DNA of 40,040 nt from a virus. Taxonomy: Duplodnaviria; Heunggongvirae; Uroviricota; Caudoviricetes. Positions 3,986 through 29,959 of this stretch are shown here, in pieces. The DNA is taken from the IMG/VR virus record IMGVR_UViG_2547132278_000009; one strand, given 5' to 3'. Numbering within the stretch: position 1 is the stretch's first letter; each line of letters opens with the position of its first letter. A program made the translations under genes and the position numbers. A model generated the notes under the pieces. That model was not told the origin of the DNA. It did no database searches and saw only the letters and a list, made by a program, of their open reading frames with translations.

Positions 3986-4067
3986 TGTTTCATCCTTGAA
4001 ATAAGTAGGCGCTAACATCCTGTCAGCGCCACAATGATAGTAAATTAGTACTTACTTATCCAGATAC

Positions 4068-4403
4068 TTAAGCCTCAAATACTTGTCTGAATGTAGCAGT
4101 TAAGACACAGTACCCCTGATATCGCTTGACCGTATGACTGTCACATACAACTACAATCCGTTTTCCTCTTGGATTAACCCAATAGAACGACTCAACGCCT
4201 GCTCGCTCAGTCAGGAAGTCATCGATTGCATTAATTTCGTTGTATGATCTGGTAAAGGTTAACGACCATTCTTCTTTAATACGATTAAGACCTTGAGCCT
4301 GTCGCTGCTCGTAGTCATCACCAAAATTAAGTACCGTGACATTCGGTTTTACGCTCTTTTCAGATTCGTAATCTGGATACCAATTAAACGTTTGTCTTTC
4401 CAT
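4068..4403 (-). CDS. Minor tail protein M
   Basis: 111 aa; FGD.Y.QR...GLN and F.W..P motifs as in lambda gpM; conserved position. Confidence 0.75.
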   Translation of the reverse strand: MERQTFNWYPDYESEKSVKPNVTVLNFGDDYEQRQAQGLNRIKEEWSLTFTRSYNEINAIDDFLTERAGVESFYWVNPRGKRIVVVCDSHTVKRYQGYCVLTATFRQVFEA

Positions 4404-4445
4404 CTCACATCCTTGTGAGACTGCCCCGGTCGGGACAGTCGATAG

Positions 4446-7400
4446 TTAGTTACGTTGAGTGTTTGGGTTGAGTGATCCGCCAGGGCGTTTCTCTTGAGCG
4501 ATAGTCTCAAGCGCGATTGCTTTCATCCGTTGAGCGGCATTGTTCCATATGCTTTCTGTATCGCCGGATTCTGTCGTGCTACCGTCACTATGGACGTTGA
4601 TCTCAATTGATACAGGAGAAAGAACATTTCCTCCTCCACTCATACCATCGGTACTTAGCGTTACAGGGATTGTTCGACCATCAGGCAATGGAACATACGC
4701 CTCATTCATATCGCCTTCCCCAAACAACGCCAATTGAGGTGAGTTGGCGATACCGCCTTTCTGGTATGCCCGGAGCGGGATCACGCCGTCTTTTCCGAAT
4801 ATTCCTCCATTTGCAAACTTCGGGATTGCAGGAATGCCTTTAGTTCCGTCAGCCACACTGCTGGTTGCGGTTTTAGCAGAGCTTGATGTCACGCTGTCGA
4901 AACCACCGCCAGCCCAAGCTGAAACAAGACCAGATGCAACCGTTGCTCCAAAACTCAACCACTTATTACCAGAGCCTGAAGCATTAGCTCCAAGCATTGC
5001 AAACGCGGCAGACAGAGCGCCGGTAACAGAGCTGAGGTTCTGCATCGAGAAGATGGAGTCCTTCACTGCTTTTGTCTCAGCATCTTTGGCTTCGGTGCTA
5101 TCAAATAGCCCCGATACCCAGCTACCAATCGCATTTGTTGCTGTGCCAATTGCGCTGGTGGTCTGCTGTGTTGTTTGCCCCAATCCAGTTACCGAACTGG
5201 ACGTCTCCTTCGTGGCTTCTCCTACAGACTTGTCGCCGTTAACAGTGTTGCCCATTCGTACCCCTTGATTGGCAACGGCGGAAGCAACCCCGGTCAGCAA
5301 ATTACCACTCTGTGAACTACCAGCAGCGGTGGTTCCCATCCCCAACATGTTCATTAGAGGCAGCGTGATCTGCGACTTCACGACCATATTGGTGATATCT
5401 TTCAAAATGGACTGAGATAGGCTGGAGAAGCTCATCTTCCCGTTAATAACGAAATCAGTCAGGACATCAGTTAAGCCACTAAACAAATCAGTCCAGGTGC
5501 TTTCGATCTGCTCTGCCAGGTTTTCGTATTCCAGTGCCAACTTCTGCGTCGCAGTCCCCGTCTCTTTAATAAGCGCGGTATTGCCAGCAGCAATCAGTTG
5601 ATTGATTTTCTTTGTATAAAGCGCCACAACTTTAGGATCAGACGCCTTATCACGAAGTTCTATCAACGCTTTGAGATTGCGGTTGTAGGTGTCTTCGAAA
5701 TCAGCAACTTTCTCTTCGCGAGACGGCGTATAGCCAGCACTAATAATGGAATCCGCCTCCGGTGCCCAAGTGGAGATCATCTGCTCAACATTGCGGCGAT
5801 TAAACATCTCGCGATATTCAGGTGTCGCATTTTTGAGGTCTTCAAGACGTTTTTTCGCCTTGTCGATCATCTCTTGAGTGATGAACTCGTTAGGTACCGC
5901 ATTAGCCAAATCTGTCAGCGATTTCGTTGTATCGCGAAGAGACTGATCAAACGATACCGTAGCCTTAGAGCTTTCACCCATTTGCCCCATAAGCTGATCG
6001 GCTTTGTCCAGAGCCTTCTGGTATCCGGCTGCCAGTTTCTGTTGCGCTGCCTGTTCCTTCTTGGCCGCACGCTGCGAGGCGTTAGCTGATCGTTGGGCTG
6101 CTTTCTCGGCAGCTGCTGCATCCTGTTCACGAGCTTTAGTCAGTGCAGCAATGGCTGCGGCACGCTCTTCATCGCTCATTTTCTCCAGAGAGCTGGCGCT
6201 GGATGCTTTCTGCAAATTAAGCTGCGTCTTGAGTTGTTTAGGCCCAATAATCGGCTTACCTTCGAAGTCCATCATCGGAGTGCCGTCAGGCAAAGTACGC
6301 TGATAAGTCGCAGAATCCATCTGGTTTCGCATATATTGCGCCAGCGCCTTCTTAGCCGCTTTATCAGTTGTACCTAACCCAAGAACAGTCCCCTGGTTTG
6401 ACATTACGCCCTTACCAGTTTTGGCCGCGTTATCTCTCTCGAACTCTGCCTGAGTCAATTCCTGAGCAACGGCTTCCAAATGCTCCTGATAACCGCGAAT
6501 ACTGCCTTGCAGTTTCTGGATCTGCTCGGTATTTCCATCCTTTTTGGCTTTTTCAAGCTGATCATTAAGAGTCGCAATTTGCTTCTCGGTCGCATTCTTA
6601 CGAGAAGAAAGTGAATCAACCAGTTTTTGCGCAGGCTCCAGATAGCTTTTGTTTACCGTTTCACGTAACGGTGCCAATAGCTTGTTCTTTTCGTCATCTG
6701 AAAGTGAACCGTCATCATTGATTTTCTGGATCTTATCCAGAGCCTCTTGCCGGGCTTTCACGAATGTTGCCGCGAAAATCTGGTTTTCCGCTCGAATTTT
6801 CTCAATCTGAGATTCGGCAGCCTCTTTAGCCAAACGCTTTGCTACAGCGCCGTCACCAAGAGCTATCGTGCCGGTTATCTTTTGATACTCCTCCTGATTT
6901 TTTTTCAGGCGTGCTTCGATGTCAGCCTTCGACTCTTTGTGAGTAATAACACCGGCAGAGTTAGATACGTAATTAACACCCTCACCAGTTTTTAATGCTC
7001 GTTGATCAGCAAGAATCTGCTTTTCGAGCTTTTCTGCGCGGTCGGCCATTTGTGCACGTTTGGCCGCTGTCATCGCTTCTGGTATTTTCCTAATCTCGTC
7101 AACGACCTTTGAAGTTTCGCTGCGGAGCATGGTCATGTACGTGATTAGGCCAGCAACAGCTACAGTGGCAACTGTAAATGCTGCCCCTATAGGGTTTGCT
7201 GCAATGAACGCCGTTAATCCAGCAAAAGCGCCTTTAAGCCCCGTAATCGCCCCACGGATGGCGAAAATAAGAGAGGGGATCGGAGCCAGCCCCATACGTG
7301 CCGCACGATTGAATCGAGTTACTGCTGTAGCGCCGAGGTTAAATGGAGTCTGTATGGCGGTCGCCATCGTGGCAAAGGTGCTAACCATCTGGCTCCCAGC

Positions 7401-9020
7401 GCCAACTACCCCCATGATCCCTGCTCGCATCAGTTTGAACGCAACCATCGCGGCCACGACCTTACCGAGATTAATTACCAGCTCTTGGTTCTTTGCTAAC
7501 CATTGAGCAAGCTGACGCAACCCATCGATTGCCGTTGTTAACCCCGAACCTAAAGAATTGGCAAACGAAATCCCTTCGGCGCTATTCATGATTGAAGCCA
7601 GTTCTTTCATCCCCTTCGATAGAGAATCCAGATATCCGGCCTGACCAACCCGATCAGCAAATAACGTGAATGACGTCTGAAGTTGCGCCAGCGCACCTGT
7701 GTAGGTTTGCATCATGTCTTTCGCTGCGTTCTCATTCTCCGCACGCAGACCAACAAACATCAGAGACAACGCCTGTTTTGCCTCAACCGTACCGCTGGCA
7801 ACGGCTTTAGTCAGTTCCCCCATAGTGATGCCTGCGGCGTCTGCCATTGCCTGCATCGCGTTAGGAACGGCTTCACCTAATTGCTGACGTAGCTCTTCCA
7901 TTGACACAACGCCCTTACCGGACATCTGCTGAACGGCCACAGCCGCACGTTTCAACAGCTCACTATCACCACCAAAACGAGCAACGGAGTCCACCAGCGC
8001 CTTCAGAGAACCATCGGTTGGATCTAAGCCAGCAGAACGAAACTTCACGAAGGAGTCTGTTAACGCCTGCATCGCGAACGGCGCATTTTGAGCCATGTCT
8101 ACGATGTACTTCATGTCATCGGCGGCAGCCTGGCCAGGGTTGGACTTCTCCTTATTCAACCCTCGAAGCATCACCCGCATACGTTCCATTTCGGCCGCAG
8201 CTTCAACAATAGGCTTCTGCCACCCAAACATGATGTCAGTAACCGTTCTGGCTGCATCTCCGATCTCGCCAAGCAGGAAAATGTTGCCACGAAGGCCAGA
8301 GAACATACCTCCTTCGTTACTTTTACCGCTATGGCCAGAAGCGCCGCTACGCCGCCCGCTACCACCATCGCCACTTCCAGATGTACGAACGCGTACCGGC
8401 TTGCTAATCAGTTGCTGACGTCCGATAACTTCGTCCATCTGCTCACGAACCTTTTTCAGTCCCTCGGCAGCCTGACTCGTTGTGACACCCCAATTACTGA
8501 GTCGCTTCGTCGTGGTATTAAGGCGCGTATTCATGCCACTCACGGACGCAGAGGCTTCTTTGACCTCCGTACCAAAGCGGCTTGCGCTTTTGCTTGCATA
8601 GGTCGCCCAATCAGAGAAATCATTTAGCTCTGATTGCACTTTACGTAATGACGCGGTGAGTTTATCTACTGAAGAAGCTGTCGTATCGACGCGCTCAATC
8701 AGGGCTTTAAGACCAGAATTGAGGCTGGTGATGTTGCCACGCATTTTACGCGTAGCATCTGAAGCAAGCTCAAAACCGGCAGCTACATCCTGTAGTTTAT
8801 CTGCCGTAGAATCGAGCTTGCTTTCCAGAACGCCAATGATACGGGCGACCGAACCCAAAGAGCGTTCAAAGGTTTGGATTTTTTGAGCAGGCTTTGTTAC
8901 CTGCTCACCAAATCGAGTAAGCAGTTTCCCCGCACGATCGATTGACGCTGTAAACTGTTTGTCTTCCAGCGACAGGATAAACTCTACGTTTTGTGACATT
9001 CCCTTGTCATCCTCTGCCAA
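4446..9020 (-). CDS. Tail tape measure protein
   Basis: 1524-aa mostly alpha-helical/coiled-coil ORF with Gly/Ser/Thr/Ala-rich segments, located between G/GT and M as in lambda H. Confidence 0.85.
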   Translation of the reverse strand: MAEDDKGMSQNVEFILSLEDKQFTASIDRAGKLLTRFGEQVTKPAQKIQTFERSLGSVARIIGVLESKLDSTADKLQDVAAGFELASDATRKMRGNITSLNSGLKALIERVDTTASSVDKLTASLRKVQSELNDFSDWATYASKSASRFGTEVKEASASVSGMNTRLNTTTKRLSNWGVTTSQAAEGLKKVREQMDEVIGRQQLISKPVRVRTSGSGDGGSGRRSGASGHSGKSNEGGMFSGLRGNIFLLGEIGDAARTVTDIMFGWQKPIVEAAAEMERMRVMLRGLNKEKSNPGQAAADDMKYIVDMAQNAPFAMQALTDSFVKFRSAGLDPTDGSLKALVDSVARFGGDSELLKRAAVAVQQMSGKGVVSMEELRQQLGEAVPNAMQAMADAAGITMGELTKAVASGTVEAKQALSLMFVGLRAENENAAKDMMQTYTGALAQLQTSFTLFADRVGQAGYLDSLSKGMKELASIMNSAEGISFANSLGSGLTTAIDGLRQLAQWLAKNQELVINLGKVVAAMVAFKLMRAGIMGVVGAGSQMVSTFATMATAIQTPFNLGATAVTRFNRAARMGLAPIPSLIFAIRGAITGLKGAFAGLTAFIAANPIGAAFTVATVAVAGLITYMTMLRSETSKVVDEIRKIPEAMTAAKRAQMADRAEKLEKQILADQRALKTGEGVNYVSNSAGVITHKESKADIEARLKKNQEEYQKITGTIALGDGAVAKRLAKEAAESQIEKIRAENQIFAATFVKARQEALDKIQKINDDGSLSDDEKNKLLAPLRETVNKSYLEPAQKLVDSLSSRKNATEKQIATLNDQLEKAKKDGNTEQIQKLQGSIRGYQEHLEAVAQELTQAEFERDNAAKTGKGVMSNQGTVLGLGTTDKAAKKALAQYMRNQMDSATYQRTLPDGTPMMDFEGKPIIGPKQLKTQLNLQKASSASSLEKMSDEERAAAIAALTKAREQDAAAAEKAAQRSANASQRAAKKEQAAQQKLAAGYQKALDKADQLMGQMGESSKATVSFDQSLRDTTKSLTDLANAVPNEFITQEMIDKAKKRLEDLKNATPEYREMFNRRNVEQMISTWAPEADSIISAGYTPSREEKVADFEDTYNRNLKALIELRDKASDPKVVALYTKKINQLIAAGNTALIKETGTATQKLALEYENLAEQIESTWTDLFSGLTDVLTDFVINGKMSFSSLSQSILKDITNMVVKSQITLPLMNMLGMGTTAAGSSQSGNLLTGVASAVANQGVRMGNTVNGDKSVGEATKETSSSVTGLGQTTQQTTSAIGTATNAIGSWVSGLFDSTEAKDAETKAVKDSIFSMQNLSSVTGALSAAFAMLGANASGSGNKWLSFGATVASGLVSAWAGGGFDSVTSSSAKTATSSVADGTKGIPAIPKFANGGIFGKDGVIPLRAYQKGGIANSPQLALFGEGDMNEAYVPLPDGRTIPVTLSTDGMSGGGNVLSPVSIEINVHSDGSTTESGDTESIWNNAAQRMKAIALETIAQEKRPGGSLNPNTQRN

Positions 9021-9393
9021 ATATTTGCATCAGTTGCTCTTTGGCGTCAGGGTCTGCCTTATCCTGGCTTGGATCGTAGACTTTATCTGTTACGACAGGT
9101 CTTCCAATCCTGAGTTGCAAACCCTCCATGAACGCCTTCACAGCCTCGCCATCCGCCTGGGACGCACGAGCGACTTGTAAGTTGCGGACATCCTCTTCCG
9201 CACGCAGACGGTCTATATTGCGACTGAGCATCCAGAACATCGTGAGAGGAACGTTCAGTAGCTCTAATGGCGACACGGCGTAGTGAGCAACTACACGACT
9301 GAAATAGAATCCGAGATCTATTGAGACGGTCCTTGTCCCGGATTCATCGCGGGAAATTACTTTGCCCCTTCGCCAGCCGCTTTTTCGTTTTCT
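9007..9393 (-). CDS. T-like -1 frame extension of the tail assembly chaperone (G/GT pair)
   Basis: ORF 9007..9276 is in the -1 frame relative to G; by hand translation that frame stays open upstream to about 9393, overlapping the last ~12 codons of G. Confidence 0.5.
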   Translation of the reverse strand, partial: RKRKSGWRRGKVISRDESGTRTVSIDLGFYFSRVVAHYAVSPLELLNVPLTMFWMLSRNIDRLRAEEDVRNLQVARASQADGEAVKAFMEGLQLRIGRPVVTDKVYDPSQDKADPDAKEQLMQIFGRG

Positions 9394-9674
9394 TCATCAA
9401 TCACTTCCATAGCGAAGGTGAAGATCTGCTGGAGTTGCGGAACAGTCAGTTTTTCAAGAACTTCGTCAGGTACTGAAGGGATAACCTTACGAACCAGATC
9501 TGCATAAGCTGTCACTTGCTCAACAGGAGACATGTTCATGAGATCTTTGCCTTCCATCTGCTTGATGGAAACAAAGAGGCCGACGGTCATTTCAACGATG
9601 GGATATTCTTTGCCACCAAATTTGATGCTTTTTTTCGGCGGCAGAATGGAGTCGAGATCGAGTAATTTGGTCAT
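9357..9674 (-). CDS. Tail assembly chaperone G-like
   Basis: 105 aa, acidic C-terminus, immediately upstream of tape measure and overlapped by a -1 frame ORF. Confidence 0.65.
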   Translation of the reverse strand: MTKLLDLDSILPPKKSIKFGGKEYPIVEMTVGLFVSIKQMEGKDLMNMSPVEQVTAYADLVRKVIPSVPDEVLEKLTVPQLQQIFTFAMEVIDEENEKAAGEGAK

Positions 9675-9700
9675 GGTTTAAATCCTTTTAAACTCATACA

Positions 9701-9720
9701 GAGGCCCATCCATGGGCCTC
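9701..9720. other. Perfect stem-loop GAGGCCCAT-CC-ATGGGCCTC between major tail gene and chaperone gene (possible attenuator or RNA stability element)
   Basis: 9-bp inverted repeat read directly; no strong U-tract on either side. Confidence 0.4.
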
Positions 9721-9735
9721 TTGGGTTATCACAAT

Positions 9736-10482
9736 TTAGCTTGCGGCAGTTACAGAGACGGCTTTGGTCGCCTTCTTGGCACCGTCATTAGTTGTGAAGG
9801 TGATATTGGCTGAACCGACAGCTTTACCAGTTACCAGTCCGTTCTGATCTACGGTCGCTTTATCAGTCGCATCAGAGCTCCACACGCCAGTCTTATTGGT
9901 TGCATCGGCCGGGGTGAAGGTTGCGCTCAATTGAACTTTAGTGCCCACTTTTACGGTCGGTGAAGACGGGGTCAGCGTGACGCTCTCAACCGGCTTTGGG
10001 AGGCTCATTTTCCCCAACACGCCAGCGTCGTCCGGGTAAGCGGAAAACTCAACTGAGAACACGCGAACGTCGTCAGACTGGTAGGTCATGGTGAAGTTAC
10101 CCGCGGTTGCTGCTTTAGGGATGGTCAGAACATAATCCGTCGCATCCTGCGGGGTCAGCACCAACTCTTTCGCAACGTCGATCAGGTTCACTCCCTGCGC
10201 AGACGTGATGGTTACGGTATCTTCGCCAGAACTCAGCGTGGAACCTGGCATCAGATCGACCATGTTTTTCAACACGGATTCAGCCAGCGGCGCAGTAATG
10301 GTGATGTTGCGGCCCTGGATCAGCTCGGAGATCGTGGTCTGGCCCAGCTGGTCTACGGTCACTTTCAGCGTTTCGGTTGCGATTTCAACCTGAACACCAC
10401 CTTTGGTGTAACCCAAATCCACACCACCAAACGACACCTTACAGGCACCAAGTTTGATGTTTTTTACATGGGTATTAGACAT
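9736..10482 (-). CDS. Major tail protein V-like with C-terminal Ig-like (Big_2-type) domain
   Basis: ORF 9736..10518, likely start MSNTHVKN at 10482; C-terminal repeat VTLTPSSPTVKVGTKVQLSATFTPADATNKTGVWSSDATDKATVDQNGLVTG typical of Big_2 domains, as in lambda gpV. Confidence 0.75.
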   Translation of the reverse strand: MSNTHVKNIKLGACKVSFGGVDLGYTKGGVQVEIATETLKVTVDQLGQTTISELIQGRNITITAPLAESVLKNMVDLMPGSTLSSGEDTVTITSAQGVNLIDVAKELVLTPQDATDYVLTIPKAATAGNFTMTYQSDDVRVFSVEFSAYPDDAGVLGKMSLPKPVESVTLTPSSPTVKVGTKVQLSATFTPADATNKTGVWSSDATDKATVDQNGLVTGKAVGSANITFTTNDGAKKATKAVSVTAAS

Positions 10483-10556
10483 TGATGGAAAACTCCTTTT
10501 TCCGTTAATTCTACGCATTCATTGCGCTAATAGTAAGTATATACTTACCAATTGAG

Positions 10557-10913
10557 TTAATTCAATAAATAGCCAGCAAATTCAACAGGAATGCCTGCTT
10601 CTATTAATGCCCCATCATTTTTGGGATAAATGATTGGCATCGCCATCGGTCGCACCAGTCGAAAATAAACACCACCAGATTCCGTTTCCTCTACTGGAAA
10701 CATCTCAATGATTTTATTGGCTTTCTCAACCGTCGTAGTAATTGACGAACCACGCACAATTATTGTGAATGATTCGTGGTAAAAGCCCTGTAGCTCATGA
10801 TCGATGCTGATACCGGTATTTGGGTTAATAAGCAGGACGCCAGATTTCACATTGGCAGGCAAGTAGTGACAGAAAATGTCAGTCCCGACCGTGCCAATCT
10901 TTGCCTTCTGCAT
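10557..10913 (-). CDS. Tail component, U-like position (tail terminator candidate)
   Basis: Position between V and the head-tail joining genes; start chosen at internal MQKAKIG to avoid overlap with the upstream gene; no motif recognised. Confidence 0.4.
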   Translation of the reverse strand: MQKAKIGTVGTDIFCHYLPANVKSGVLLINPNTGISIDHELQGFYHESFTIIVRGSSITTTVEKANKIIEMFPVEETESGGVYFRLVRPMAMPIIYPKNDGALIEAGIPVEFAGYLLN

Positions 10914-10941
10914 CAAACTTGCAAACGCTTCAATAAACACA

Positions 10942-11415
10942 TTAACCTCTCGTAAAACCGGCTTTTCTGGCAGCCTCAAGAATCGCTTCTGAGAACTGCT
11001 TCTCGCTAATTTCCACCGCTCTTTCCAGAAAGTGTGGCCCAACACGAGGTTTAACACCGGCAATTGGTGGGTTTGTCACGTTCTTCATTCGAGAAAGATA
11101 ACCGAGTCGGTATTTACCCAGCTCCATGTACTTAGCATAGTCACCGACTTCTACGCCCGGATGCCCCTGACGTGGTTTTGCTCCAGACACAGAAAGCTCA
11201 ATGCGCAGCCCTGAATAACCTTCTTTAATCACCCTGGCAAAGATGGCTGTCTCCAGAGATCCGGTTTCCAGCGGGGCCATTGCACGGCTGAGACGCTCAA
11301 CCAAACGCGCCAGCTTTTCCATGTCCCGAATAAGATATCGCTTAAATGCTTTCTGGCTGTTGTTGAGTCGATTCCCCGCACGTTTGAACTGATGCGCATC
11401 GTATTTCAGACCCAT
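10942..11415 (-). CDS. Tail completion / head-tail joining protein (Z-like position)
   Basis: 157-aa ORF in the conserved slot; assignment by synteny only. Confidence 0.4.
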   Translation of the reverse strand: MGLKYDAHQFKRAGNRLNNSQKAFKRYLIRDMEKLARLVERLSRAMAPLETGSLETAIFARVIKEGYSGLRIELSVSGAKPRQGHPGVEVGDYAKYMELGKYRLGYLSRMKNVTNPPIAGVKPRVGPHFLERAVEISEKQFSEAILEAARKAGFTRG

Positions 11416-11750
11416 ATATTCGCCCCCACTTCAAGATGCCCTGGTCTTCCTCGTAGCCCCCAGCGGCGATGAACACTGGACACCTTTAATTTTTGACCTT
11501 CAAGGATCAGTACATCATCAAGTTGTACAGCCGCTTCCAAAGGGACAACTAACACAGCATCAAACAGTTCCAGGCTCGCCTTACCACGACTACCAGAGCT
11601 ATCAGCACGAACTGACGATTTCTCATTACTCTGTTCGAACTTAACCACGCCGACATTCGTCTTCCTGACGAATTGTAATTGCGCCTCACCGTAAACGTTC
11701 TTTGCGCCAAAGCGGTAGATCGCAATTTCTGTTTGCCATGAAATATTCAT
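11406..11750 (-). CDS. Head-tail connector candidate
   Basis: ORF 11406..11846; likely start MNISWQ at 11750 preceded by GGGAGAG Shine-Dalgarno; synteny only. Confidence 0.4.
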   Translation of the reverse strand: MNISWQTEIAIYRFGAKNVYGEAQLQFVRKTNVGVVKFEQSNEKSSVRADSSGSRGKASLELFDAVLVVPLEAAVQLDDVLILEGQKLKVSSVHRRWGLRGRPGHLEVGANIWV

Positions 11751-11829
11751 GCTCTCTCCCTGTTGTTGTCGGTCGCTCTCATTACTGGCCAAAAACCCTT
11801 TAGACCAAAAGTAAATAATGCGACTGGCG

Positions 11830-13097: not shown

Positions 13098-13141
13098 AAC
13101 GCATTCTCTCTACATGGGCGGCTTTCGCCGCCCAATATTGA

Positions 13142-14062: not shown

Positions 14063-14074
14063 TTCTTGCTCCTA

Positions 14075-14106: not shown

Positions 14107-14135
14107 CATAGATAACTACTTATCTACTATACTGA

Positions 14136-15011: not shown

Positions 15012-15036
15012 CTATCAATTCCCTTTGATTTAGATG

Positions 15037-15924: not shown

Positions 15925-15945
15925 AAAAATTCCTTTTGTTACTTA

Positions 15946-17520
15946 TCACTCGTTCTCTTGAGTAGATGAGTCCCCATTCCCTCGGGGTTGATCTTGCCCG
16001 CTTTCTTGGGCTGCACCACGATCATAAGTAAGTGATGACTTATTTTCAAGGGTATTTAGATCATTTTTTGGAGGAAAATTCAAGAGATCTTTATCAAATT
16101 CCTCTTTCATCGCCTCAGTAATGTTCGGGAAAATCTTCTCAATAAGCATTTCCATCTGGTGACGACGTACAGAGTCCGGTGCCTGAAGTAATGACAGTTT
16201 CTCGGCAACAGAAAATTCATCAGTAAGGCCACGAATATCGAAACTTTCTGGATACGCAATTAAAGAGTGGTCTTCGTCCAGATCTACCCCCATCCATTTC
16301 GCAACCAGTAGCATGATTTGGCGTTCAGCCCTTTCCAGACGCTCTGCTTTTGTGACAAGCAAGCTATTTACACGCTGGAAGTCATACATTTTTGCGGCAC
16401 CAGATGAGTTATCGATTCCCTGTGCGTTGTCCTGCTTCGTTCGCTCACCAGCTACACCAACTGAATGGTAGATTTCGTTAATCACCGTCTTAATCGTAGT
16501 GATGATCATCTGAGCTTGTTTCGGGTCTGGTGACAGATAAAACGGCTGGTTTCCACCTTCAGAATCGTAGGTGAAGACTCGCTTTGTGCCCATTTCAAGC
16601 ACTTTAGTGTGGTTTTCATCACCAGGTAAAAGCGACTGTACTGGTATAGCCAACTGGCTAAATGTCTGATCCTGAATAATGGCATCAAGGTTTGACAGAT
16701 AGTTTGCAACCGCACGATCAAGATAAGCGATATCATCGATCAACGATGGGCTGAAATACGGTGATTCACTTTCTCCAATACAATCAACAGGAAACACAGG
16801 AACTACGCCGAGATTATGCTCACCGCTATCCTCTAAAATAACTTTTGCCTGACGGCGACCTGCTCCACCAGCGCCCTTCTTCACTTCCTCACGGAACAGA
16901 TACCACTCGTTTTGTGTCCACAGACGATAACGTTGGTATTCCTGACCTGTAGAAGTAAAAGGATCTGCGTCATCGCGAGCGACTTCCACAATTAACGCCC
17001 ATAACATATTCCCGTCGTCGTCCCATGCCACATCCAGCATTTGCTGAGGTGAAATCCAGTAGGCGTAGGCGCGAGCATCTTTCTTTTTCTCGTCAGCTAC
17101 TGACTCAACATCACCACTCATCGTGCTATCGACAACAACCCATATGCGACCGTAAATAGACGACTGCAAATCAATAGCGGCCATAAATGAGTCAATAGAG
17201 GCATTCTGGCGAGTCGCACGTTTCCAGAAATTGCGGATCTGCTCTGGTGCCTCTTCGATATTTCTATGAATGTCTTCTTTAAAGAGATATTTGTTGATGA
17301 GGTTTACCACCTCACGAGTGTGGTTGAAGCGATAAGCACGTTCAACTCGCTCCTTAAACTCCTGATCTCCCTCTTTAAAGTAACGAAAGATATTGTCTGT
17401 AAACCAACCACGCCCGCCAGCGTAAGTGCTGGCGAGGAAGTCCCAATGTTCTTTTTTCTTTTCGTATTCCGGGTGGCGTCGCGCCACCAGATCCTTAATT
17501 TGTTTGTCGTTCAATTCCAT
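15946..17520 (-). CDS. Portal protein (candidate)
   Basis: 524-aa ORF immediately downstream of terminase large subunit; size and position typical. Confidence 0.6.
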   Translation of the reverse strand: MELNDKQIKDLVARRHPEYEKKKEHWDFLASTYAGGRGWFTDNIFRYFKEGDQEFKERVERAYRFNHTREVVNLINKYLFKEDIHRNIEEAPEQIRNFWKRATRQNASIDSFMAAIDLQSSIYGRIWVVVDSTMSGDVESVADEKKKDARAYAYWISPQQMLDVAWDDDGNMLWALIVEVARDDADPFTSTGQEYQRYRLWTQNEWYLFREEVKKGAGGAGRRQAKVILEDSGEHNLGVVPVFPVDCIGESESPYFSPSLIDDIAYLDRAVANYLSNLDAIIQDQTFSQLAIPVQSLLPGDENHTKVLEMGTKRVFTYDSEGGNQPFYLSPDPKQAQMIITTIKTVINEIYHSVGVAGERTKQDNAQGIDNSSGAAKMYDFQRVNSLLVTKAERLERAERQIMLLVAKWMGVDLDEDHSLIAYPESFDIRGLTDEFSVAEKLSLLQAPDSVRRHQMEMLIEKIFPNITEAMKEEFDKDLLNFPPKNDLNTLENKSSLTYDRGAAQESGQDQPRGNGDSSTQENE

Positions 17521-17546
17521 TTGAATAACCTTAGATAATTACTTAC

Positions 17547-18803
17547 CTATCGAGAACCACCAAGAATAACACGGTTTTTGACTGGATACCTACGATGTAC
17601 TGGATAGCCCAATGCGTCTGCACTATGCTCAATGCCACCTGTCTTATCCATATCTCGTGTTCCAGGCTTGTAGATGACTTTTTCCAGTGAATCAATCAAA
17701 TGCTTGCACTTCGGATCGATATACAGCCGGATATCTCCAGATGCGGTCATCAGCATTCGGTTAACAGCATTAACACGATCCGCAATTGGCGGGTGCTTTT
17801 TCGAATAATCGACACGTAAGAATCCCTTCTCTTTGAATATGTCTACGTCAGACTCCCCACGAGCATGTTGGCGATAAGCACCTGCCGGATCTGGAAATAC
17901 CGTTACCTGTGATTTCCAGCGCCAGAAGCGTCTCTCAAGCTCATCACAAACTTCTGCCGTGTTAGAGGAAAAGAGCACCAATTCATCAATTGCCCATAGC
18001 TCACCATTTGGCTGAGGTTGCAAAATTACTGAAGACATCGGGTCAATGTTGAAGTCCTGCCCTACCCATATAGGCAACCGAGGGTTGAACTGAAGCGGTT
18101 TTACATGCACGTTACGATCGAACGGGTAGTAAACGCGCCCGGACATGTTCTCAAAGCTGGCCAGGTACTCCTGAGCGAACGATTTGGGGTCCATATCGTT
18201 CTTAGCAGCTTCAATTTCCGCCGTAGGTACAAACGGAGAATCGGCAGTTACAAACTGCCAGCTCTTCCACTGTCCCTTTCTTTGCAGCTCTACGTTCTGG
18301 CCTATAGTCCACAGTTTGTGAAATTCCGAGAAGCCTTTTGGCGTACCAATGATCAGTGCACCGCCGCGTGTCGATGAAAGAGTAGGTCGTAACACCTTGT
18401 ACCAGGTGTCAGCCTTCATATCCTGAAATTCATCAAGCACTACAAAATGCAACGCTACGCCGCGCAGAGTGTCAGGCTTATCAGCACCTTTGAGGGCGAT
18501 CTCCGAACCGTTCTTCAACACGATTGTCATCGTGGTGTCGTTCTTTTTCCTAACCCACTTACGAGGCAGAACTTCCTGTAGATCGTCCCACAAAATCTGG
18601 CGAGCCATCTGGTAAGTAGGAGCGACATACCAGACCCTTTGCTTTTTTTCCTTTGCCGCCGCACGAATAATAGTGGAGATCGACAACCGGGATTTTCCCC
18701 AGCGTCGACCAGCACAAACAACTTTAAATCGATGCGGAGACTGGAAGACTTTCATCTGTCCAGAATGCAGTTGCACAAGACTGAGCGAGGACGGGATTGC
18801 CAT
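17547..18803 (-). CDS. Terminase large subunit
   Basis: 418 aa; Walker A CAGRRWGKS, Walker B VVLDEFQD, C-terminal nuclease-like region; start overlaps stop of the small subunit gene. Confidence 0.85.
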   Translation of the reverse strand: MAIPSSLSLVQLHSGQMKVFQSPHRFKVVCAGRRWGKSRLSISTIIRAAAKEKKQRVWYVAPTYQMARQILWDDLQEVLPRKWVRKKNDTTMTIVLKNGSEIALKGADKPDTLRGVALHFVVLDEFQDMKADTWYKVLRPTLSSTRGGALIIGTPKGFSEFHKLWTIGQNVELQRKGQWKSWQFVTADSPFVPTAEIEAAKNDMDPKSFAQEYLASFENMSGRVYYPFDRNVHVKPLQFNPRLPIWVGQDFNIDPMSSVILQPQPNGELWAIDELVLFSSNTAEVCDELERRFWRWKSQVTVFPDPAGAYRQHARGESDVDIFKEKGFLRVDYSKKHPPIADRVNAVNRMLMTASGDIRLYIDPKCKHLIDSLEKVIYKPGTRDMDKTGGIEHSADALGYPVHRRYPVKNRVILGGSR

Positions 18804-19517: not shown

Positions 19518-19630
19518 GGGTGTTTAATTAGATCTGGCATGTCTTACGAAGCCTGCTTCCGTATATATTTAATAAGTTACTTATTATTTATATATATAGA
19601 TGCAGGTCTTTAAATAAGCTCCCAGACCGA

Positions 19631-19897
19631 TTACATCACCAGTAACTTCGCTTTGGCTCGACCTAAAGTGGTTAACCCAAGAGTTCGGCGGTGATAGCGA
19701 TTGTCACTGCGTTGGCGCGTATGCCCTTTCTCCACCAGCCCCTTTTTTATCAGAGCGCGAATTGAGAACTGGATACTTTGCTTGGTTGTCTTGTACGGCA
19801 AAACTTCAAGCAATTCGTCCAGATCAAGTAGATGACCTCGCTCATAACCGAGATTGAGCGTTTTGATTATGTCCTTTTGTTTGTCGGTTAACGTCAT
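19631..19897 (-). CDS. Small basic protein, possibly winged-helix DNA binding
   Basis: 88-aa ORF 9 bp downstream of the GNAT-like gene; basic C-terminus; no firm motif. Confidence 0.35.
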   Translation of the reverse strand: MTLTDKQKDIIKTLNLGYERGHLLDLDELLEVLPYKTTKQSIQFSIRALIKKGLVEKGHTRQRSDNRYHRRTLGLTTLGRAKAKLLVM

Positions 19898-19906
19898 GGC
19901 AAATCC

Positions 19907-21459: not shown

Positions 21460-22124
21460 GCAGCCATCTCCCCGGAAGAGATCTTCTCCGCATATGCCAC
21501 AAATGCGTCTACCCCGCTTTCTCCCGTCATTTCTTCCATGTGGGCAAGCAAATCACCAACAACAATGGCAGAGCCAGCAGGGAGCGTTTTAAAGCCCAAT
21601 ACGTCGACAACACGTACTTCTTCCGCTGCAACTTCACGACTGATCTCGGTGTGTTCATCCTTCTGTCGTTTAGTTTCTTCGCCAAGATCGATAACTAGCG
21701 AATCGGTGTCCATTTCTTCTGTCATACTGCCAACGAGAACATTCAACTCACGCTCTTCAAAGCCGAAAACCTCGATATCGTCCAGAACAAGCGACTCAAG
21801 CTCTTTCTGTAGCTTAATTGCATCGTAATCAATGCTGGCAAGTCGGTTATCTTCAAGGCGCTTCGCACGAACCTCGTCATCACTGAGATCATCGCGAACA
21901 ATAACCGGTACGCGCTCAAGTCCAGCAAAAATTGCAGCCTCACGGCGGCCGTGGCCAGTAATAATTACGTCGTTCTTATCGACCGTAATTGGCTGGTCAA
22001 ATCCGCGCTTTTTAATGGCTGCGGCCAGATCTCGGATCTGCTGTTCATCATGCTTTTTGGCATTCATCTCATAGGGAATAAGATCTGCCGGGTCGCGATA
22101 TACGATTTCAAACTTTTTGGTCAT
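21456..22124 (-). CDS. ParB/Srx-like N-terminal domain protein (second of two)
   Basis: ITGHGRREAAIFAG matches the ParB arginine motif (GxxRxxA); probable start MTKKF overlapping the upstream stop as TAATG. Confidence 0.65.
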   Translation of the reverse strand: MTKKFEIVYRDPADLIPYEMNAKKHDEQQIRDLAAAIKKRGFDQPITVDKNDVIITGHGRREAAIFAGLERVPVIVRDDLSDDEVRAKRLEDNRLASIDYDAIKLQKELESLVLDDIEVFGFEERELNVLVGSMTEEMDTDSLVIDLGEETKRQKDEHTEISREVAAEEVRVVDVLGFKTLPAGSAIVVGDLLAHMEEMTGESGVDAFVAYAEKISSGEMAA

Positions 22125-22822
22125 TACATACGCTCCTTGTAGTAGTCGACCAGCCACACCAGAGCCTCACCAGCGTTCTCCATTTCATTACCGGTGTTAA
22201 TAGCCTGCTCTTTGATGATGTTTTTTATGGTTTCTGCAACACGATCTGACGCATCGAAAGTTACTTTGAAGCGCATGGTCTGATGTTCCGCACCCACACG
22301 TTCGGTTTTCTCTCGTTTGTCGGTATCGACAGGCTCATCACTACCACGAGACAACGCCTCCAGTGCTTCAAGGTCGATTGCCGCCTCTTTTGCTAAAACC
22401 ATCGAGATTTCGTCGTCATACGGGGCGATTTCAGACAGTTGATAGTCAAGTTCTGACTGAATTTCTTCAATGAAGCGTTGCAATGCGATTTGGTCGTCTT
22501 CACCGTATCGCTCGTTGTCCACCAGTGACATCTGTTTAGCTACGACATCGCTAATTTTGCCCACAGAAAGCACCGGAACCGTTGAAATTCCTTGCTCAAT
22601 AGCAGCACGCCAGCGATGTTCGCCGCCGAGGATTTCAAAAAATCCATCTTCAAGTTCACGAGCCAAAATTGGCTTAAAAAAGCCCAATTTTTCGATAGAA
22701 CCTTTCAGTTTTTCAAAATTCTGCGCACCAACCGAATTGGTGTTCCAGGTATTCGGGCGAAGGTTGGCAACATCAACCTGCAAAATCGTGATTTTTACAT
22801 CCATTTTATTGCTACAATCCAC
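22124..22822 (-). CDS. ParB/Srx-like N-terminal domain protein (first of two)
   Basis: ILGGEHRWRAAIEQG matches the ParB arginine motif; first gene of the operon, divergent from the helicase. Confidence 0.7.
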   Translation of the reverse strand: MDCSNKMDVKITILQVDVANLRPNTWNTNSVGAQNFEKLKGSIEKLGFFKPILARELEDGFFEILGGEHRWRAAIEQGISTVPVLSVGKISDVVAKQMSLVDNERYGEDDQIALQRFIEEIQSELDYQLSEIAPYDDEISMVLAKEAAIDLEALEALSRGSDEPVDTDKREKTERVGAEHQTMRFKVTFDASDRVAETIKNIIKEQAINTGNEMENAGEALVWLVDYYKERM

Positions 22823-22840
22823 TAAGTAATCACTTACTTA
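22823..22840. promoter_or_regulatory. Inverted repeat TAAGTAA-TCAC-TTACTTA in the divergent promoter region between the ParB operon and the helicase
   Basis: Read directly; followed by TATTATAAT (-10-like); member of a recurring TAAGTA/TACTTA palindrome family. Confidence 0.4.
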
Positions 22841-22886
22841 TTATAATAGCCAAATAACATACAAAAGGCACTAAGGAAAGAGGTTT

Positions 22887-24446
22887 ATGACTGTTCGGAT
22901 TGTATCTAACGCAGTTAATGCGCTTATTTCTGGCGCAGATGACAAGGTAAAGCAACTGGTGCAACAGATGTTGAGCTACGAAGTCGAGACTGGCGACTGG
23001 AAGGGCACAAGCACGATGTTCAACTGGAGTAAAAACTCGTTCCCTGCTGGCTTTGCCAAGCCTGTAGCGGCGAACTTGAACAAGGCGGGCATCAAATGTG
23101 TTCATATCCGCAAAGACAAAGCCCCGGCGCTTGGAAAGCCAAATCCGGCGGTTAACCCATTCCCATACAATCCTGATTATGCATATCAGGATCAGGCTGT
23201 GGAAACACTAGTTCGCGAGGGAATGATGATTGCCCAGATCGCTACTGGTGGTGGGAAATCTAACGTTGCCTGCAAAGCAGCTGCACGTATCGGTCGAATG
23301 ACATTATTTTTAACAACCCGCTCTGTTCTGATGTTTCAGATGGCCGAAAACTTCCAGAGATCCATCGACTACCGCGCCAAAAATGGCGAACCGTGGTTAA
23401 AAGACCAAAAGGTTGGAGTCATTGGCTCGGGTGAGTTCCAGGTATCGCGACATATCAACGTCGCTACAGTTCAAACTCTTGCAAGTTTCCTCGAAGAACC
23501 ACCACGCGATGCAACACCAGATAAGAAAAGCTACCACCTCAAACGTCGGGAGTTGGTGAAACGCTTCCTTTCAAGTGTCTCTCTTCTTATTCTGGAAGAG
23601 GCGCATGAGTCTTCAGGCTCTAATTTCTATGACATTGCCAGATTATGTGCGAACGCAGACTATCGCCTGGCGCTTACGGCAACGCCGTTCATGAAGGATT
23701 CTACGGAAGCCAACATGCGCCTGATGGCGGTGGCCGGGCGAATTGAAATTAAAGTCACAGAAAAGTACCTGATTGATCGAGGCATTCTGGCAAAGCCGTA
23801 CTTCCTTTATCATAAAGTTGCCTACAAACCAGACGAGGCCAGAATCAAGGCAGAGCTTGCCAACAAACACCTCAATTTTAGAGTAGGTATGAGCACTGCC
23901 TACCAAAAGGCTTATCAGTTGGGGATCGTGTATAATTTGGGACGTAACGAGGCCATTGTGCGCGAGGCATTGCTTTATAAGCAACATTCACTCAACTGCA
24001 TGACTCTGGTTCGTCTTAAACGCCACGGGCAAATCCTGATGGAGATGATGAAGGAGTCAGGTCTTAAAGTTGATTTCATCTATGGGGAATCTAACCAGAC
24101 GACAAGGCAAGCAAAGCTGAATAGTTTAGCGTCTGGTGAAATAGATGTTTTAATAGGCTCGACTATTCTGGATGTTGGTGTTGATGTGCCAAGCGTTGGT
24201 GCGGTCATTCTTGCTGGTGGTGGGAAAGCAGAAGTTGAAATGAGACAGCGTGTCGGTCGTGGCTTACGAGCCAAAAAAAATCAGGCAAACGTGTGTTTTA
24301 TCACTGATTTCATTGACATTAGCAACAAATACCTGTTGTCTCACTCTTATGAGCGAAAACACATCATCGACACCACACCTGGCTTTGCAGAAGGTGTATT
24401 GCCTATTGATGGAGCATTCGATTTTGGAGTTCTGAAACGAGATTAG
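22887..24446 (+). CDS. Superfamily-2 DEAD/DEAH-type helicase
   Basis: 519 aa; motif I AQIATGGGKSNVA, motif II LILEEAHE, motif III LTATP, motif VI QRVGRGLR; AAGGA RBS upstream. Confidence 0.85.
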   Translation: MTVRIVSNAVNALISGADDKVKQLVQQMLSYEVETGDWKGTSTMFNWSKNSFPAGFAKPVAANLNKAGIKCVHIRKDKAPALGKPNPAVNPFPYNPDYAYQDQAVETLVREGMMIAQIATGGGKSNVACKAAARIGRMTLFLTTRSVLMFQMAENFQRSIDYRAKNGEPWLKDQKVGVIGSGEFQVSRHINVATVQTLASFLEEPPRDATPDKKSYHLKRRELVKRFLSSVSLLILEEAHESSGSNFYDIARLCANADYRLALTATPFMKDSTEANMRLMAVAGRIEIKVTEKYLIDRGILAKPYFLYHKVAYKPDEARIKAELANKHLNFRVGMSTAYQKAYQLGIVYNLGRNEAIVREALLYKQHSLNCMTLVRLKRHGQILMEMMKESGLKVDFIYGESNQTTRQAKLNSLASGEIDVLIGSTILDVGVDVPSVGAVILAGGGKAEVEMRQRVGRGLRAKKNQANVCFITDFIDISNKYLLSHSYERKHIIDTTPGFAEGVLPIDGAFDFGVLKRD

Positions 24447-24448: not shown

Positions 24449-24727
24449 ATGAGTGAAAAGAAAACAACTTACTGTCAGGTAGCATTGTCTGATAAGGCCA
24501 ATGACAAACTTGGAAAGTTTCAAGTGAAACTAAAAGAAAAAAATATCAAAATGTCTAAGGCTGAAGTCATAAATACCATTCTGGAACAATTGACAATGGC
24601 CGACTTTGACAAGGTTATATCTTCTGTCGGGGCTTCCGCTAAGACTCGTGAGAAAATCATGCGTATCTATGAGAACTCTAATATGACAAAGGAAGATCTC
24701 GAAACGCTATTAAGCAGATTAAAATAA
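24449..24727 (+). CDS. Hypothetical protein (92 aa)
   Basis: ORF starting 3 nt after the helicase stop; lysine-rich; no motif recognised. Confidence 0.45.
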   Translation: MSEKKTTYCQVALSDKANDKLGKFQVKLKEKNIKMSKAEVINTILEQLTMADFDKVISSVGASAKTREKIMRIYENSNMTKEDLETLLSRLK

Positions 24728-25218: not shown

Positions 25219-25747
25219 TGACATGACAACCAAAGATATTACCTACGGTATCCAAGCTGAACTCTGGCCGCGAGATTACACTAACGTTGAAAAACTACTG
25301 ATGTTCTGGCGCAGAGAACAAATTCCTGTAAGGGTCACTCTCGAAGATGGCCAGGCGTTTTGCATGTACGTTTATGGCCTCATGCCATCTCGTAACAAAG
25401 TTGACCTTTGCCCAGCCCCTTTTGACAAAGAAAATCGTATAAGGCTCCCACTTGAACGCATTAGTACAATTGAATCAGGTGTGGTTGACAGTATCGCTCA
25501 CGATTTCAAAGGTCGACTAACAGTTCACCCTGATTATGTCGATAATCGGCCATCACGCCGCGATTTTTTTGCAATTTGCAACCAAGCCTACAAAGCAAAC
25601 AAATCTATAAGGGTGTACATGGCGGATGGCCGTGAAATTGAGGGGGTGTCAGCAGGCGCAGATGCTTGTCAGGTTACACTACGTGTCGAGAACGGTAGAA
25701 AAATAGTTGTTTTGTTCGATTGGGTTGAACGAATTTTGCCTTTTTGA
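25214..25747 (+). CDS. Hypothetical protein with apparent internal duplication
   Basis: ORF 25145..25747; likely start MTTKDITYG overlapping the lipoprotein stop; two similar segments (IPVRVTLEDGQAFCMYVYG / IRVYMADGREIEGVSAG). Confidence 0.45.
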   Translation, partial: CDDMTTKDITYGIQAELWPRDYTNVEKLLMFWRREQIPVRVTLEDGQAFCMYVYGLMPSRNKVDLCPAPFDKENRIRLPLERISTIESGVVDSIAHDFKGRLTVHPDYVDNRPSRRDFFAICNQAYKANKSIRVYMADGREIEGVSAGADACQVTLRVENGRKIVVLFDWVERILPF

Positions 25748-27497: not shown

Positions 27498-27502
27498 AAT
27501 CG

Positions 27503-27530
27503 AGCGCCCACTATGGGCGCTTTTTTCGTT
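27503..27530 (+). terminator. Rho-independent terminator (hairpin copy 2 plus T6)
   Basis: AGCGCCCA-CTA-TGGGCGCT followed by TTTTTTCG. Confidence 0.7.
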
Positions 27531-27547
27531 TCCAATACTCCCACCAT

Positions 27548-27577
27548 AACGCGCCAATGATGGCGCGTTTTTTATTG
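27548..27577 (+). terminator. Second tandem rho-independent terminator
   Basis: GCGCCA-ATGATG-GCGCG followed by TTTTTTATT. Confidence 0.6.
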
Positions 27578-27986
27578 TCTTTGATTCACTCCAACAACAT
27601 AAAAACAAGCGCCAAAATAACGCCATAGACGCACTTTTATATCCTTACCAGTACATACCCATTACTTAACACATTAACGCGCTTAAAACGCGTTATATTG
27701 CGCTATAGCGCATAATTAATCATTGGCTTTTAGTCTTGCTATGTGATCCGCGTTTAATTGTCGGCGCGGATCGGCATTTTGTTTTGTTCCGTATCCGCTC
27801 GCGTATTATGTGCGCGTGATTTTCACATAATCACACCACTTAATCACGTATGTGATTATGCTACGAAAGAAATCTGGATGTCTCAGGCGACGAAAGTCAT
27901 CATAATTTTCCCCGCTCACCTGTCCGACAACCGCTGGTTGGATTCCACCAGCTTCCCGATGTTTTTTCTACATAAAGGCGAATGCA

Positions 27987-28099
27987 GCCGTTTCCCGAAA
28001 AAATCCTGGCCGTTTCCCGTCGGCTCATGAATACGTTCCTCGCCGTTTCTGAAAATTTCCCTGCGGCAGCTGGTGTCTATAGAGAAAGGGCCGTTTCTG
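27987..28099. repeat. Iteron-like direct repeat array A (GCCGTTTCC/GCCGTTTCTG, 4 copies)
   Basis: GCCGTTTCCC at 27987 and 28009 (22 bp apart), GCCGTTTCTG at 28042 and 28090. Confidence 0.6.
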
Positions 28100-28112
28100 G
28101 CCCTCTTCTCAG

Positions 28113-28612: not shown

Positions 28613-28632
28613 AAATAACAAATTGTTTTCTT
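28613..28632 (-). promoter_or_regulatory. Palindromic operator copy (AACAAATTGTT core) upstream of the 160-aa gene
   Basis: AATAACAAATTGTTTTCTTG read directly; flanking TTAATTAACACCAACAAG block is shared with the site at 31143. Confidence 0.45.
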
Positions 28633-29375: not shown

Positions 29376-29395
29376 CAGAAAACAAATTGTTATCG
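29376..29395 (-). promoter_or_regulatory. Palindromic operator copy upstream of the acidic 124-aa gene
   Basis: CAGAAAACAAATTGTTATCG; adjacent hairpin GGCGCG-N6-GCGCC likely terminator of the upstream gene. Confidence 0.45.
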
Positions 29396-29437
29396 GGCTT
29401 AATAAAATGGCGCGGTTTACGCGCCATTTAAAGAGGA

Positions 29438-29833
29438 TTAAGCGAATACGCTTTCAGGGATTAAGGTGTCGGCAGGAATGCCAGAGGTAATGCGCAGGCC
29501 GTACTGACCAATCCAGGTAGTGTTGGTATTCAGGCTGGAGGCGAATACGGTGTTAACCATATTCATCATGGTTTCAAACACCTCTTCATCAACCTGGCGG
29601 AAGTAGTTCTCGATTTTCAGCAGCAGCGGGTCAGTTGCATCGAGAATGGACTGGTATTGAGTCGCGTACTCGCCGCCGGAGGCATCACCTTTACGCACGA
29701 TCGTACTGGCCTGGACTTCGGCACCAGTTTCGGTGTTGTACGTAACAACGGTGATTTTTGCCACATTCTTACCTTCGGCGGTTTCAGAGGCATAGTAAAC
29801 ATCAACTGTCAGTTTTTCGCGTTTAACGGTCAT
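29438..29833 (-). CDS. Hypothetical protein (131 aa)
   Basis: ORF with GGAGAGTG RBS-like sequence upstream; no motif recognised. Confidence 0.5.
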   Translation of the reverse strand: MTVKREKLTVDVYYASETAEGKNVAKITVVTYNTETGAEVQASTIVRKGDASGGEYATQYQSILDATDPLLLKIENYFRQVDEEVFETMMNMVNTVFASSLNTNTTWIGQYGLRITSGIPADTLIPESVFA

Positions 29834-29959
29834 TTCACTCTCCGTAGTGTATTGGTTATTTTTCTATTCTATGATCGTAAGTATGTACTTACAATACAAA
29901 AAAGCCCCGTAAGGATGGCGGGGCTGTCGTACTGTCGACTAATTGCCACTTGCACATTA

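Follow-up and report, generated by a model that had tools for sequence, protein, structure and literature searches.

A palindrome with TAAGTA and TACTTA as half-sites recurs in a 40,040-nucleotide (nt) stretch of viral DNA, record IMGVR_UViG_2547132278_000009 (hereafter the window). The repeated motif is real, and it amounts to ~27 sites per 110 kb of a phage-plasmid, seven of them in the window. We infer, with a probability of about one half, that these palindromes are dispersed operators of a plasmid-encoded Xre-type repressor which would silence the viral genes; that a protein binds them, which protein it is and in which direction it acts are deduced from sequence comparisons. Judging from its sequence, the window is part of an Escherichia coli phage-plasmid of the SSU5/pHCM2 type. 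Window bases 9000-23000 are matched by E. coli plasmids in 248 of 5426 complete genomes, plasmid-borne in every case; they share 97% identity with 'phage CMS-2020a' and Cyrano, and ~81% with Salmonella phage SSU5 and with phage-plasmids of Klebsiella. The gene annotation of the window was transferred from a plasmid of 99.7-99.9% identity, and plasmid-wide counts were made on the assembled 110-kb relative NZ_OZ121086 (110,246 bp), which is 99.6% identical over window bases 9000-23000.

Exact copies of TAAGTA-N2-4-TACTTA are found twice in the window (10534 and 29878), and none was found in 100 shuffles. When one mismatch to TARGTRNNYACYTA was allowed, eight matches at seven loci were obtained against an expectation of 0.60, and no shuffle reached eight. 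A position weight matrix (PWM) was trained on 18 sites only, all of which lie outside the window-homologous part of the related plasmid. This matrix scored at least 13 at seven window loci (10532, 4043, 29876, 17534, 22821, 16027 and 14107), the next candidates being at noise level, and 10 window positions scored at least 12, compared with 0.8 in shuffles. TACTTA on the plus strand occurs 16 times, 11 of them in the intergenic 16% of the window. Chance or AT-richness as the origin of the motif is ruled out by the shuffles and by the split between coding and non-coding DNA.

A sequence-only reading of the window had pointed out seven palindromes with a spacing of two to four nt, and all its sequences were found at the coordinates it gave. 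Six of the seven belong to the motif, and the remaining one, at 19571-19585, is a different element by its score and spacing (Table 1). Three of the six, at 4040-4060, 14111-14124 and 17531-17548, had been taken for relatives containing a half-site; they are full sites by consensus and PWM. Instead of N2-4, the spacing follows a strict TARGT-N4-ACYTA rule, to which N8 or N0 copies are added. The listed sites are intergenic as had been said, but a further site, at 16027-16044, lies within the portal gene.

On NZ_OZ121086, TAAGTANNTACTTA with up to two mismatches matched 40 times, and 37 of the 40 matches lie in the intergenic 13.3% of the plasmid, so the frequency in coding DNA, whose equality with that elsewhere would have spoken against the proposal, is clearly not equal. 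The distribution of PWM scores is bimodal, with 27 sites at 13.5 or more and everything else at 11.7 or less. Sites precede nrdA, thyA, a DNA methylase gene, ssb, cobT/AAA genes, the primase-ligase block, the holin and tail fibre genes and head/tail genes; no site was seen at the repB and parA promoters. Thus the motif, which had been regarded as a mark of operon junctions in the virion module, is plasmid-wide and also stands before nucleotide-metabolism, replication, methylase and lysis genes.

The symmetric profile of the sites is wATARR-TARGTA-NN-TACYTA-YYTATw, in which any base may stand at the two central positions and T, G, T / A, C, A are invariant. In both the E. coli plasmid and SSU5, TARGT and ACYTA are separated by 4 nt (16-17 per genome), 8 nt (13) or 0 nt (1-4). 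Other spacings from 0 to 14 were absent except for strays at N3 (E. coli plasmid) and N5 (SSU5) and the N1 of a large palindrome described below. This rule reflects 4-nt-phased repeats of the form (TAAG)n..(CTTA)n. No strand bias of TAAGTA half-sites was found in intergenic DNA (22 sense versus 22 antisense), while the upstream half is slightly better conserved (9 versus 18 mismatches). Most sites start 0-23 nt past the upstream stop codon, and the next start codon follows their end after either 44-63 nt or 11-18 nt.

The motif is kept at orthologous junctions in SSU5 and in the Klebsiella plasmids pJN2-26 and pCRKP18622-1 while the intergenic flanks diverge, and it is also found in Yersinia pestis and Kluyvera contigs. 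Xenorhabdus carries a variant enriched in TAGGTA/TACCTA. In Acinetobacter baumannii phage-plasmids, whose portal protein is 52% identical, the same lattice is built from TCAGT/ACTGA, with 22 N4 sites in 91.5 kb, and this is the sole enriched palindrome there; Aeromonas shows a TCAGTAA...TTACTGA mixture. A family-specific protein co-evolving with its own site would be the simplest explanation of these lineage variants. In the virulent, syntenic Pseudomonas phage nickie, neither the motif nor an equivalent palindrome was found in the searched 100 of 112 kb. Many intergenic regions of nickie have a -10-like TATACT, TACAAT or CATAAT between short variable GC-rich inverted repeats, for example GCGCGTATACTCGCGC.

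Conservation was also followed site by site, with the sites numbered W1 to W7 as in Table 1. W1 is shared with SSU5 and two Klebsiella lineages, and each of the four has a -10-like hexamer 5 nt downstream of it; W2 is kept in SSU5 and pJN2-26. W3 is kept with variation in four lineages, and the arrangement of W4 is also seen in SSU5 (3545) and pCRKP18622-1. The W5 junction has a site in E. coli, SSU5, both Klebsiella lineages, Xenorhabdus, Acinetobacter and Aeromonas. W6, which abuts a palindromic TATAAT, is kept in four lineages and has analogous sites in Acinetobacter (13238) and Aeromonas (4030). At W7, four lineages have kept the -35, the palindrome and the -10, while the flanks diverge. 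The isolated half-site behind the portal gene is retained as GATAAGTAA in three of four lineages. Downstream of W2, at the U-to-V junction (~10490-10520), there is a small hairpin with compensatory substitutions, GCACC/GGTGC in SSU5 and GTGTC/GACAC in pJN2-26, and these changes suggest that the major-tail mRNA has a conserved stem-loop at its 5′ end or close to it.

Scanning around 70 sites of four genomes, we found no -10 hexamer at a fixed offset and no preferred orientation; the peaks in the scan stem from the TATC flanks of the palindrome itself and are equal on both strands. A promoter element at a fixed position was rejected for this reason. The motif was also rejected as a sigma-70 -10 or -35 element, since the invariant T..GT / AC..A fit neither hexamer and the last base is A, not T. 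Sites within promoter-like spans are nevertheless frequent: sigma-70-like -35...-10 spans on the gene strand hold 8 of 25 sites but 3.7% of intergenic bases (binomial p = 2 × 10-6), where the spans are consensus matches only. The window has four such spans, TGGATA-17-TATCAT around W1 (4062-4034), TTGAAT-18-TATACT overlapping W2 (10565-10536), TTGAAA-17-TATGAT on the minus strand with W4 (16049-16021) and that of W7 (29894-29866). The third is the best sigma-70-like promoter of the virion region, and W4 fills its 17-bp spacer. Together with TTGAAA-17-TATTAT and the W7 span, TTGTAA-17-TAGAAT, it is one of the spans that hold sites, some of which are near consensus. Several sites occupy promoter spacers in this way, and in two of these promoters 10 of 12 positions agree with the consensus. 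In Acinetobacter, TTGAAA-17-TACAAT holds the palindrome of that lineage in its spacer. The site and the -10 are -2 to +6 nt apart.

The sequence-only reading had proposed a second regulator, such as a late-gene activator. The first part of this proposal is supported, because the dyad is conserved in sequence, is kept at orthologous junctions and has lineage-specific half-site variants, which are the properties of binding sites of a separate dimeric regulator. An activator is less likely than a repressor. Near-consensus promoters, matching 10 of 12 positions, are found on a plasmid that must keep its capsid genes silent, and therefore a repressor rather than an activator would be needed.

The candidate repressor is an Xre-type helix-turn-helix (HTH) protein with weak HTH_19/HTH_3 Pfam matches, annotated as 'putative repressor' in phage Cyrano. 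Its gene is found in 960 plasmids, compared with 965 for the portal gene, with the same host spectrum, and 217 E. coli plasmids carry it. In E. coli, Salmonella Typhi pHCM2, Y. pestis pFra and Klebsiella, TC(A/G)GTAAG(C/T)ACTTACC comes immediately after its promoter, TTTACA-17-TAATAT. Upstream of the homologous HTH gene, a second Klebsiella lineage, Acinetobacter (TCAGTCAGTTCTGA) and Aeromonas (TCAGTCAATCTTTACTG) have their own variants, so that lineage-specific motif variants at this promoter are seen in seven lineages. The E. coli site ranks 27th among 110,000 positions by a PWM from which it had been excluded. The HTH gene is absent from SSU5, which retains the sites, and from nickie, which is without them. 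The site at the HTH promoter, the co-distribution and the absence from SSU5 and nickie together make the pattern expected of an autoregulated prophage repressor and its operators. SSU5 is a plaque-isolated phage used in biocontrol (PMC7969092), the sole member of the group obtained in this way. It lacks the segment that adjoins cobT in pHCM2 and all plasmid forms, which comprises a gene for 70 amino acids, the Xre-type HTH gene and the integrase gene, and it may be a natural virulent deletion derivative.

According to the repressor reading, the whole phage-plasmid would be under a single regulon, in which a dimeric, element-encoded protein would read TARGT-N4-ACYTA, often reinforced by 4-nt-phased copies. 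At sites within a core promoter or immediately behind one, the bound protein would keep RNA polymerase out; at those in short gaps that directly follow a stop codon, it would block read-through in the manner of a roadblock. The genes for replication, virion and lysis would thereby be silent while the element lives as a plasmid, and the Xre-type protein would also repress its own promoter. The genes behind the sites on the 110-kb relative are lytic-cycle genes of all classes.

Several observations weigh against this reading. No convincing promoter surrounds about two thirds of the sites, six sites end only 11-18 nt before a start codon, and the likeness to promoters comes partly from the weakly conserved flanks of the motif itself (GATA...TATC). 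The recognition helix of the HTH protein differs between Klebsiella (NPNILS) and E. coli (NANNLS) despite the same motif. That of another putative DNA-binding protein, an 88-amino-acid winged-helix protein whose gene immediately precedes that of the small terminase (terS), is invariant in all TARGT lineages and changed (TKQS to TKQA) in the TCAGT lineages. Finally, the half-site of the motif is that of the late-promoter box of phage P1, which is an activator site.

The last two points belong to the main rival, which we regard as unlikely: the sites may be activator boxes like those of P1 late promoters, bound by the winged-helix protein, which would switch on middle and late genes. In P1 (NC_005856) the late promoters consist of AAGT(G/T)ACTT, 4 nt and a -10, with the same AAGT/ACTT half-site within the -35...-10 span, and lpa is directly upstream of LPpac-pacA, just as the winged-helix gene is upstream of terS with a AAGTTACTT box between. 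The AlphaFold model of the protein (predicted local distance difference test, pLDDT, 82) matches MarR/PadR-like proteins at template modelling (TM) scores of 0.7-0.76, so that a winged helix of this kind is predicted. Its putative recognition helix covaries with the half-site across lineages, where a profile search of genome contigs with the winged-helix alignment gave six loci only, too few for specificity covariation. W6 stands in place of a -35 before the perfect TATAAT of the helicase operon, and in one class of sites the dyad is ~21.5 nt upstream of the start, as in P1. The geometry of the sites as a whole argues the other way, because over the 70 sites there is neither a -10 at a fixed distance nor an orientation preference, and the interval between site and -10 varies as given above; moreover, the spacing is N4 and not the N1 of P1. 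Some host promoters at 10 of 12 consensus positions should not require an activator, and the regulon mixes DNA-metabolism with virion genes. Every lineage has kept the winged-helix protein, even nickie, where the motif is absent. As a homologue of P1 Lpa it was rejected: BLASTP (E = 6.4), hhalign (probability 0.1%) and Pfam (no PF25716 match) gave no support, and tblastn with Lpa as the query had no match in the plasmid, SSU5 or the window.

The two readings can be combined, although we consider the combination a long shot. The repressor and the conserved winged-helix protein would then compete for the same ~27 sites, the former silencing and the latter activating nearly every lytic unit. The winged-helix protein would be a non-homologous counterpart of Lpa, the sites would form the single 4-nt-phased switch of the SSU5/pHCM2/pMT1 supergroup, and SSU5 would be a natural, virulent repressor-deletion derivative.

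A different binder is very improbable. Two proteins with ParB-N domains are encoded, together with ABC-type ATPases, directly beside the conserved site W6, and they might act like KorB of plasmid RK2, a ParB-family regulator which binds dispersed palindromes (OB sites). The ParB-like/ABC operon is, however, equally conserved in nickie, which has no motif, and the window proteins show the ParB_N domain only, with no HTH domain detected. A nucleoid or global factor of the host is hard to square with lineage-specific half-sites, and the motif is not known from any E. coli regulator.

Least probable of all, by a little, is an RNA element, that is, a short hairpin after stop codons to which an RNA-binding protein or nuclease would bind in control of processing, stability or translation, one candidate being the FljA-like protein encoded at 25223-25747, from a family of post-transcriptional repressors. 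Hairpins of 7-9 bp with -3.9 to -8.2 kcal/mol are predicted, with z ≤ -2.7 in three of five cases, most sites follow a stop codon within 23 nt and some abut a Shine-Dalgarno sequence. Yet the stem sequence itself is conserved beyond pairing, and deviations on the sense strand give A.C mismatches as often as G.U pairs. The contexts are those of DNA sites: 29878 is between a terminator hairpin and the next -10, 22823 is in a divergent promoter region and the HTH-gene site is at a promoter start. The strict N4/N8/N0 lattice of half-sites likewise points to a protein reading double-stranded DNA. The FljA-like, the ribbon-helix-helix (RHH)-like (24449-24727) and the phrog_2473 (29438-29833) proteins were rejected as binders, proximity being all that spoke for them.

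Table 1. Palindrome sites and other features of the window and, where an accession is given, of the related plasmid
Feature	Position	Strand	PWM score	Remarks
W1	4043..4060		20.0	Junction of M-like and L-like tail genes; gene (minus) strand reads TAAGTAAGTACTAA
W2	10532..10549		23.6	Perfect palindrome GTAAGTATATACTTAC, upstream of major tail (Ig-like) gene
W3	14107..14124		13.1	Directly after stop of major capsid gene, before GC-rich hairpin 14085-14101
W4	16027..16044		16.8	Inside 3′ end of portal gene
W5	17532..17551		17.7	26-nt gap between large terminase and portal genes; two registers 4 nt apart
W6	22821..22840		17.1	Divergent control region of ParB-like operon and DEAD-box helicase operon; N4 and N8 copies
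W7	29876..29893			GTAAGTATGTACTTAC, between terminator-type hairpin and promoter -10; within TTGTAA-17-TAGAAT, 29894-29866 (minus strand)
Isolated half-site TAAGTA	15940..15945	-		Directly after portal stop codon (tgaTAAGTAAC); not a full site
~55-bp palindrome	19552..19606		8.9	CCTGCTTCCGTATATAT...ATATATAGATGCAGG; not a member of the motif; centre 19571-19585 (AATAAGTTACTTATT, N1)
AAACAA-N-TTGTTT	19476-19488, 19501-19513, 28616-28628, 29380-29392, 30283-30295, 30767-30779, 31144-31156, 32327-32339, 33940-33952, 33991-34003			Second palindrome
Tail, head and terminase genes	324-19435	-		Transferred annotation
88-amino-acid winged-helix protein gene (phrog_900)	19631..19897	-		Just upstream of terS
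ParB-like/ABC-ATPase operon	19631-22804			Transferred annotation
Helicase operon	starts 22887			Divergent; transferred annotation; small-gene region beyond
Xre-type HTH gene	NZ_OZ121086 17965-18351			WP_001282577.1; 128 amino acids; adjoins integrase gene, ~25-30 kb outside the window

Other dispersed elements are present besides the motif. The ~55-bp palindrome has as its core AAGTTACTT, which is the -22 box of P1 late promoters, and is placed between the winged-helix gene and terS. Each plasmid has three copies, one in front of terS, one in front of the dnaB/primase block and one close to the methylase gene; the linear records of SSU5 and Cyrano, as deposited, have their ends within the copy next to terS. 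This palindrome may serve as a cos or packaging site, as an origin or as a late promoter of the P1 type.

The second palindrome, AAACAA-N-TTGTTT, has 10 matches in the window compared with 0.3 expected, usually 12-40 nt before a start codon and downstream of repeated early-type promoters. The 110-kb relative has nine perfect copies, including those before parA, dnaB, dnaE and terS, and the Acinetobacter relative has none. It is probably the operator of yet another regulator, for which the RHH-like protein of 92 amino acids is a candidate. The TAAGTA motif is distinct from this AACAA-TTGTT operator, and also from the LexA box, with CTGT/ACAG (CTGT-N8-ACAG) absent, as the sequence-only reading had held in both cases. 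The sole SOS-type box of the window, a perfect TACTGTATACACATACAGTA, is at 37823-37842, just upstream of a humD/umuD-like gene (37417-37806).

Some further features concern the content of the window. Between 30755 and 32682 there are 1.9 kb without annotated genes, strongly A/C-rich on the minus strand, with clusters of GGGAAACGG/GCCGTTTCC-like repeats that recur in the 615-bp gap 27498-28112; these regions have the look of iterons or centromeres, or may be non-coding RNA. In an 800-bp gap without annotated genes, the exact 15-nt direct repeat GTCGCCAGATACTTA occurs on the minus strand at 38206-38220 and 38379-38393, 173 nt apart; the TACTTA inside it has no relation to the palindrome family. 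The phage-plasmid also carries the host-like genes metG (methionyl-tRNA synthetase) and apbC (window 34088-37379). The FljA-family gene, on the plus strand, is full-length (Pfam Flag1_repress, E = 1.5 × 10-84). The family is that of the post-transcriptional repressor of phase-1 flagellin, and its presence suggests that the plasmid can interfere with flagellin expression of the host.

Phage-plasmids of the SSU5/pHCM2/pMT1 type are common, with ~960 plasmid records. They include S. Typhi pHCM2, Y. pestis pFra/pMT1 and many from Klebsiella, E. coli, Enterobacter and Acinetobacter clinical isolates, and some carry resistance genes. In the searchable literature we found no account of how this group chooses between plasmid life and lysis, and no description of the TARGT-N4-ACYTA motif or of regulation in the SSU5 group. 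With an operator motif defined, ~27 sites mapped and a candidate repressor named, this question becomes accessible to a few simple experiments. If the repressor reading is true, it would explain the apparently lytic behaviour of SSU5 and offer a handle for inducing or curing these plasmids and for immunity-insensitive therapeutic derivatives.

Among known systems, one close likeness is to C1 of P1, also a plasmid prophage, in which one repressor keeps the lytic functions off via many operators over ~100 kb. The C1 operators are asymmetric 17-mers, and C1 is an unrelated protein of 283 amino acids, whereas the sites described here are dyads of 14-18 bp with a 4-nt lattice and their candidate binder is an Xre-type HTH protein of less than half that length (Table 1). 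The C1 operators mostly overlap sigma-70 promoters and include that of the repressor's own gene (the P1 record lists Oref, Omat, Ossb, Oc4, OrepL, Olpa and Oc1a-e), but many sites here come right after stop codons without an obvious promoter. As to the late promoters and Lpa of P1, the AAGT/ACTT half-site, the location between -35 and -10 and the small DNA-binding gene directly upstream of the small terminase gene are alike, while P1 has N1 spacing (AAGTNACTT) and a fixed 4-nt gap to the -10 where we find N4/N8/N0 and a variable distance. A true P1-type AAGTNACTT box is found only in the separate ~55-bp palindrome.

In placement, the sites resemble the 'stoperators' of mycobacteriophage L5, 25-30 repressor sites per genome in short intergenic gaps of early and late operons, often at stop codons. 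These are reportedly asymmetric 13-mers bound by gp71 as a monomer in one orientation relative to transcription, and they are thought to block read-through in the prophage. The present motif, in contrast, is palindromic, with a symmetric PWM and no orientation bias. An oriented, stoperator-like unit is ruled out by the even strand count and this symmetry, but the stoperator-like placement holds, most sites lying 0-23 nt past a stop codon and those of Acinetobacter 4-16 nt. The conserved inverted repeats of Streptomyces phage phiC31, bound by the c repressor, and the KorB OB sites of RK2 are likewise many copies of one palindromic operator distributed over a mobile element for global control. 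Their proteins and motifs are unrelated to those considered here, and we know of no description in phiC31 or KorB of placement after stop codons or of 4-nt-phased extra half-sites. Control of a prophage through repressor operators scattered over the element is known from P1, L5 and phiC31, and the TARGT-N4-ACYTA motif would be a further case of this kind of system.

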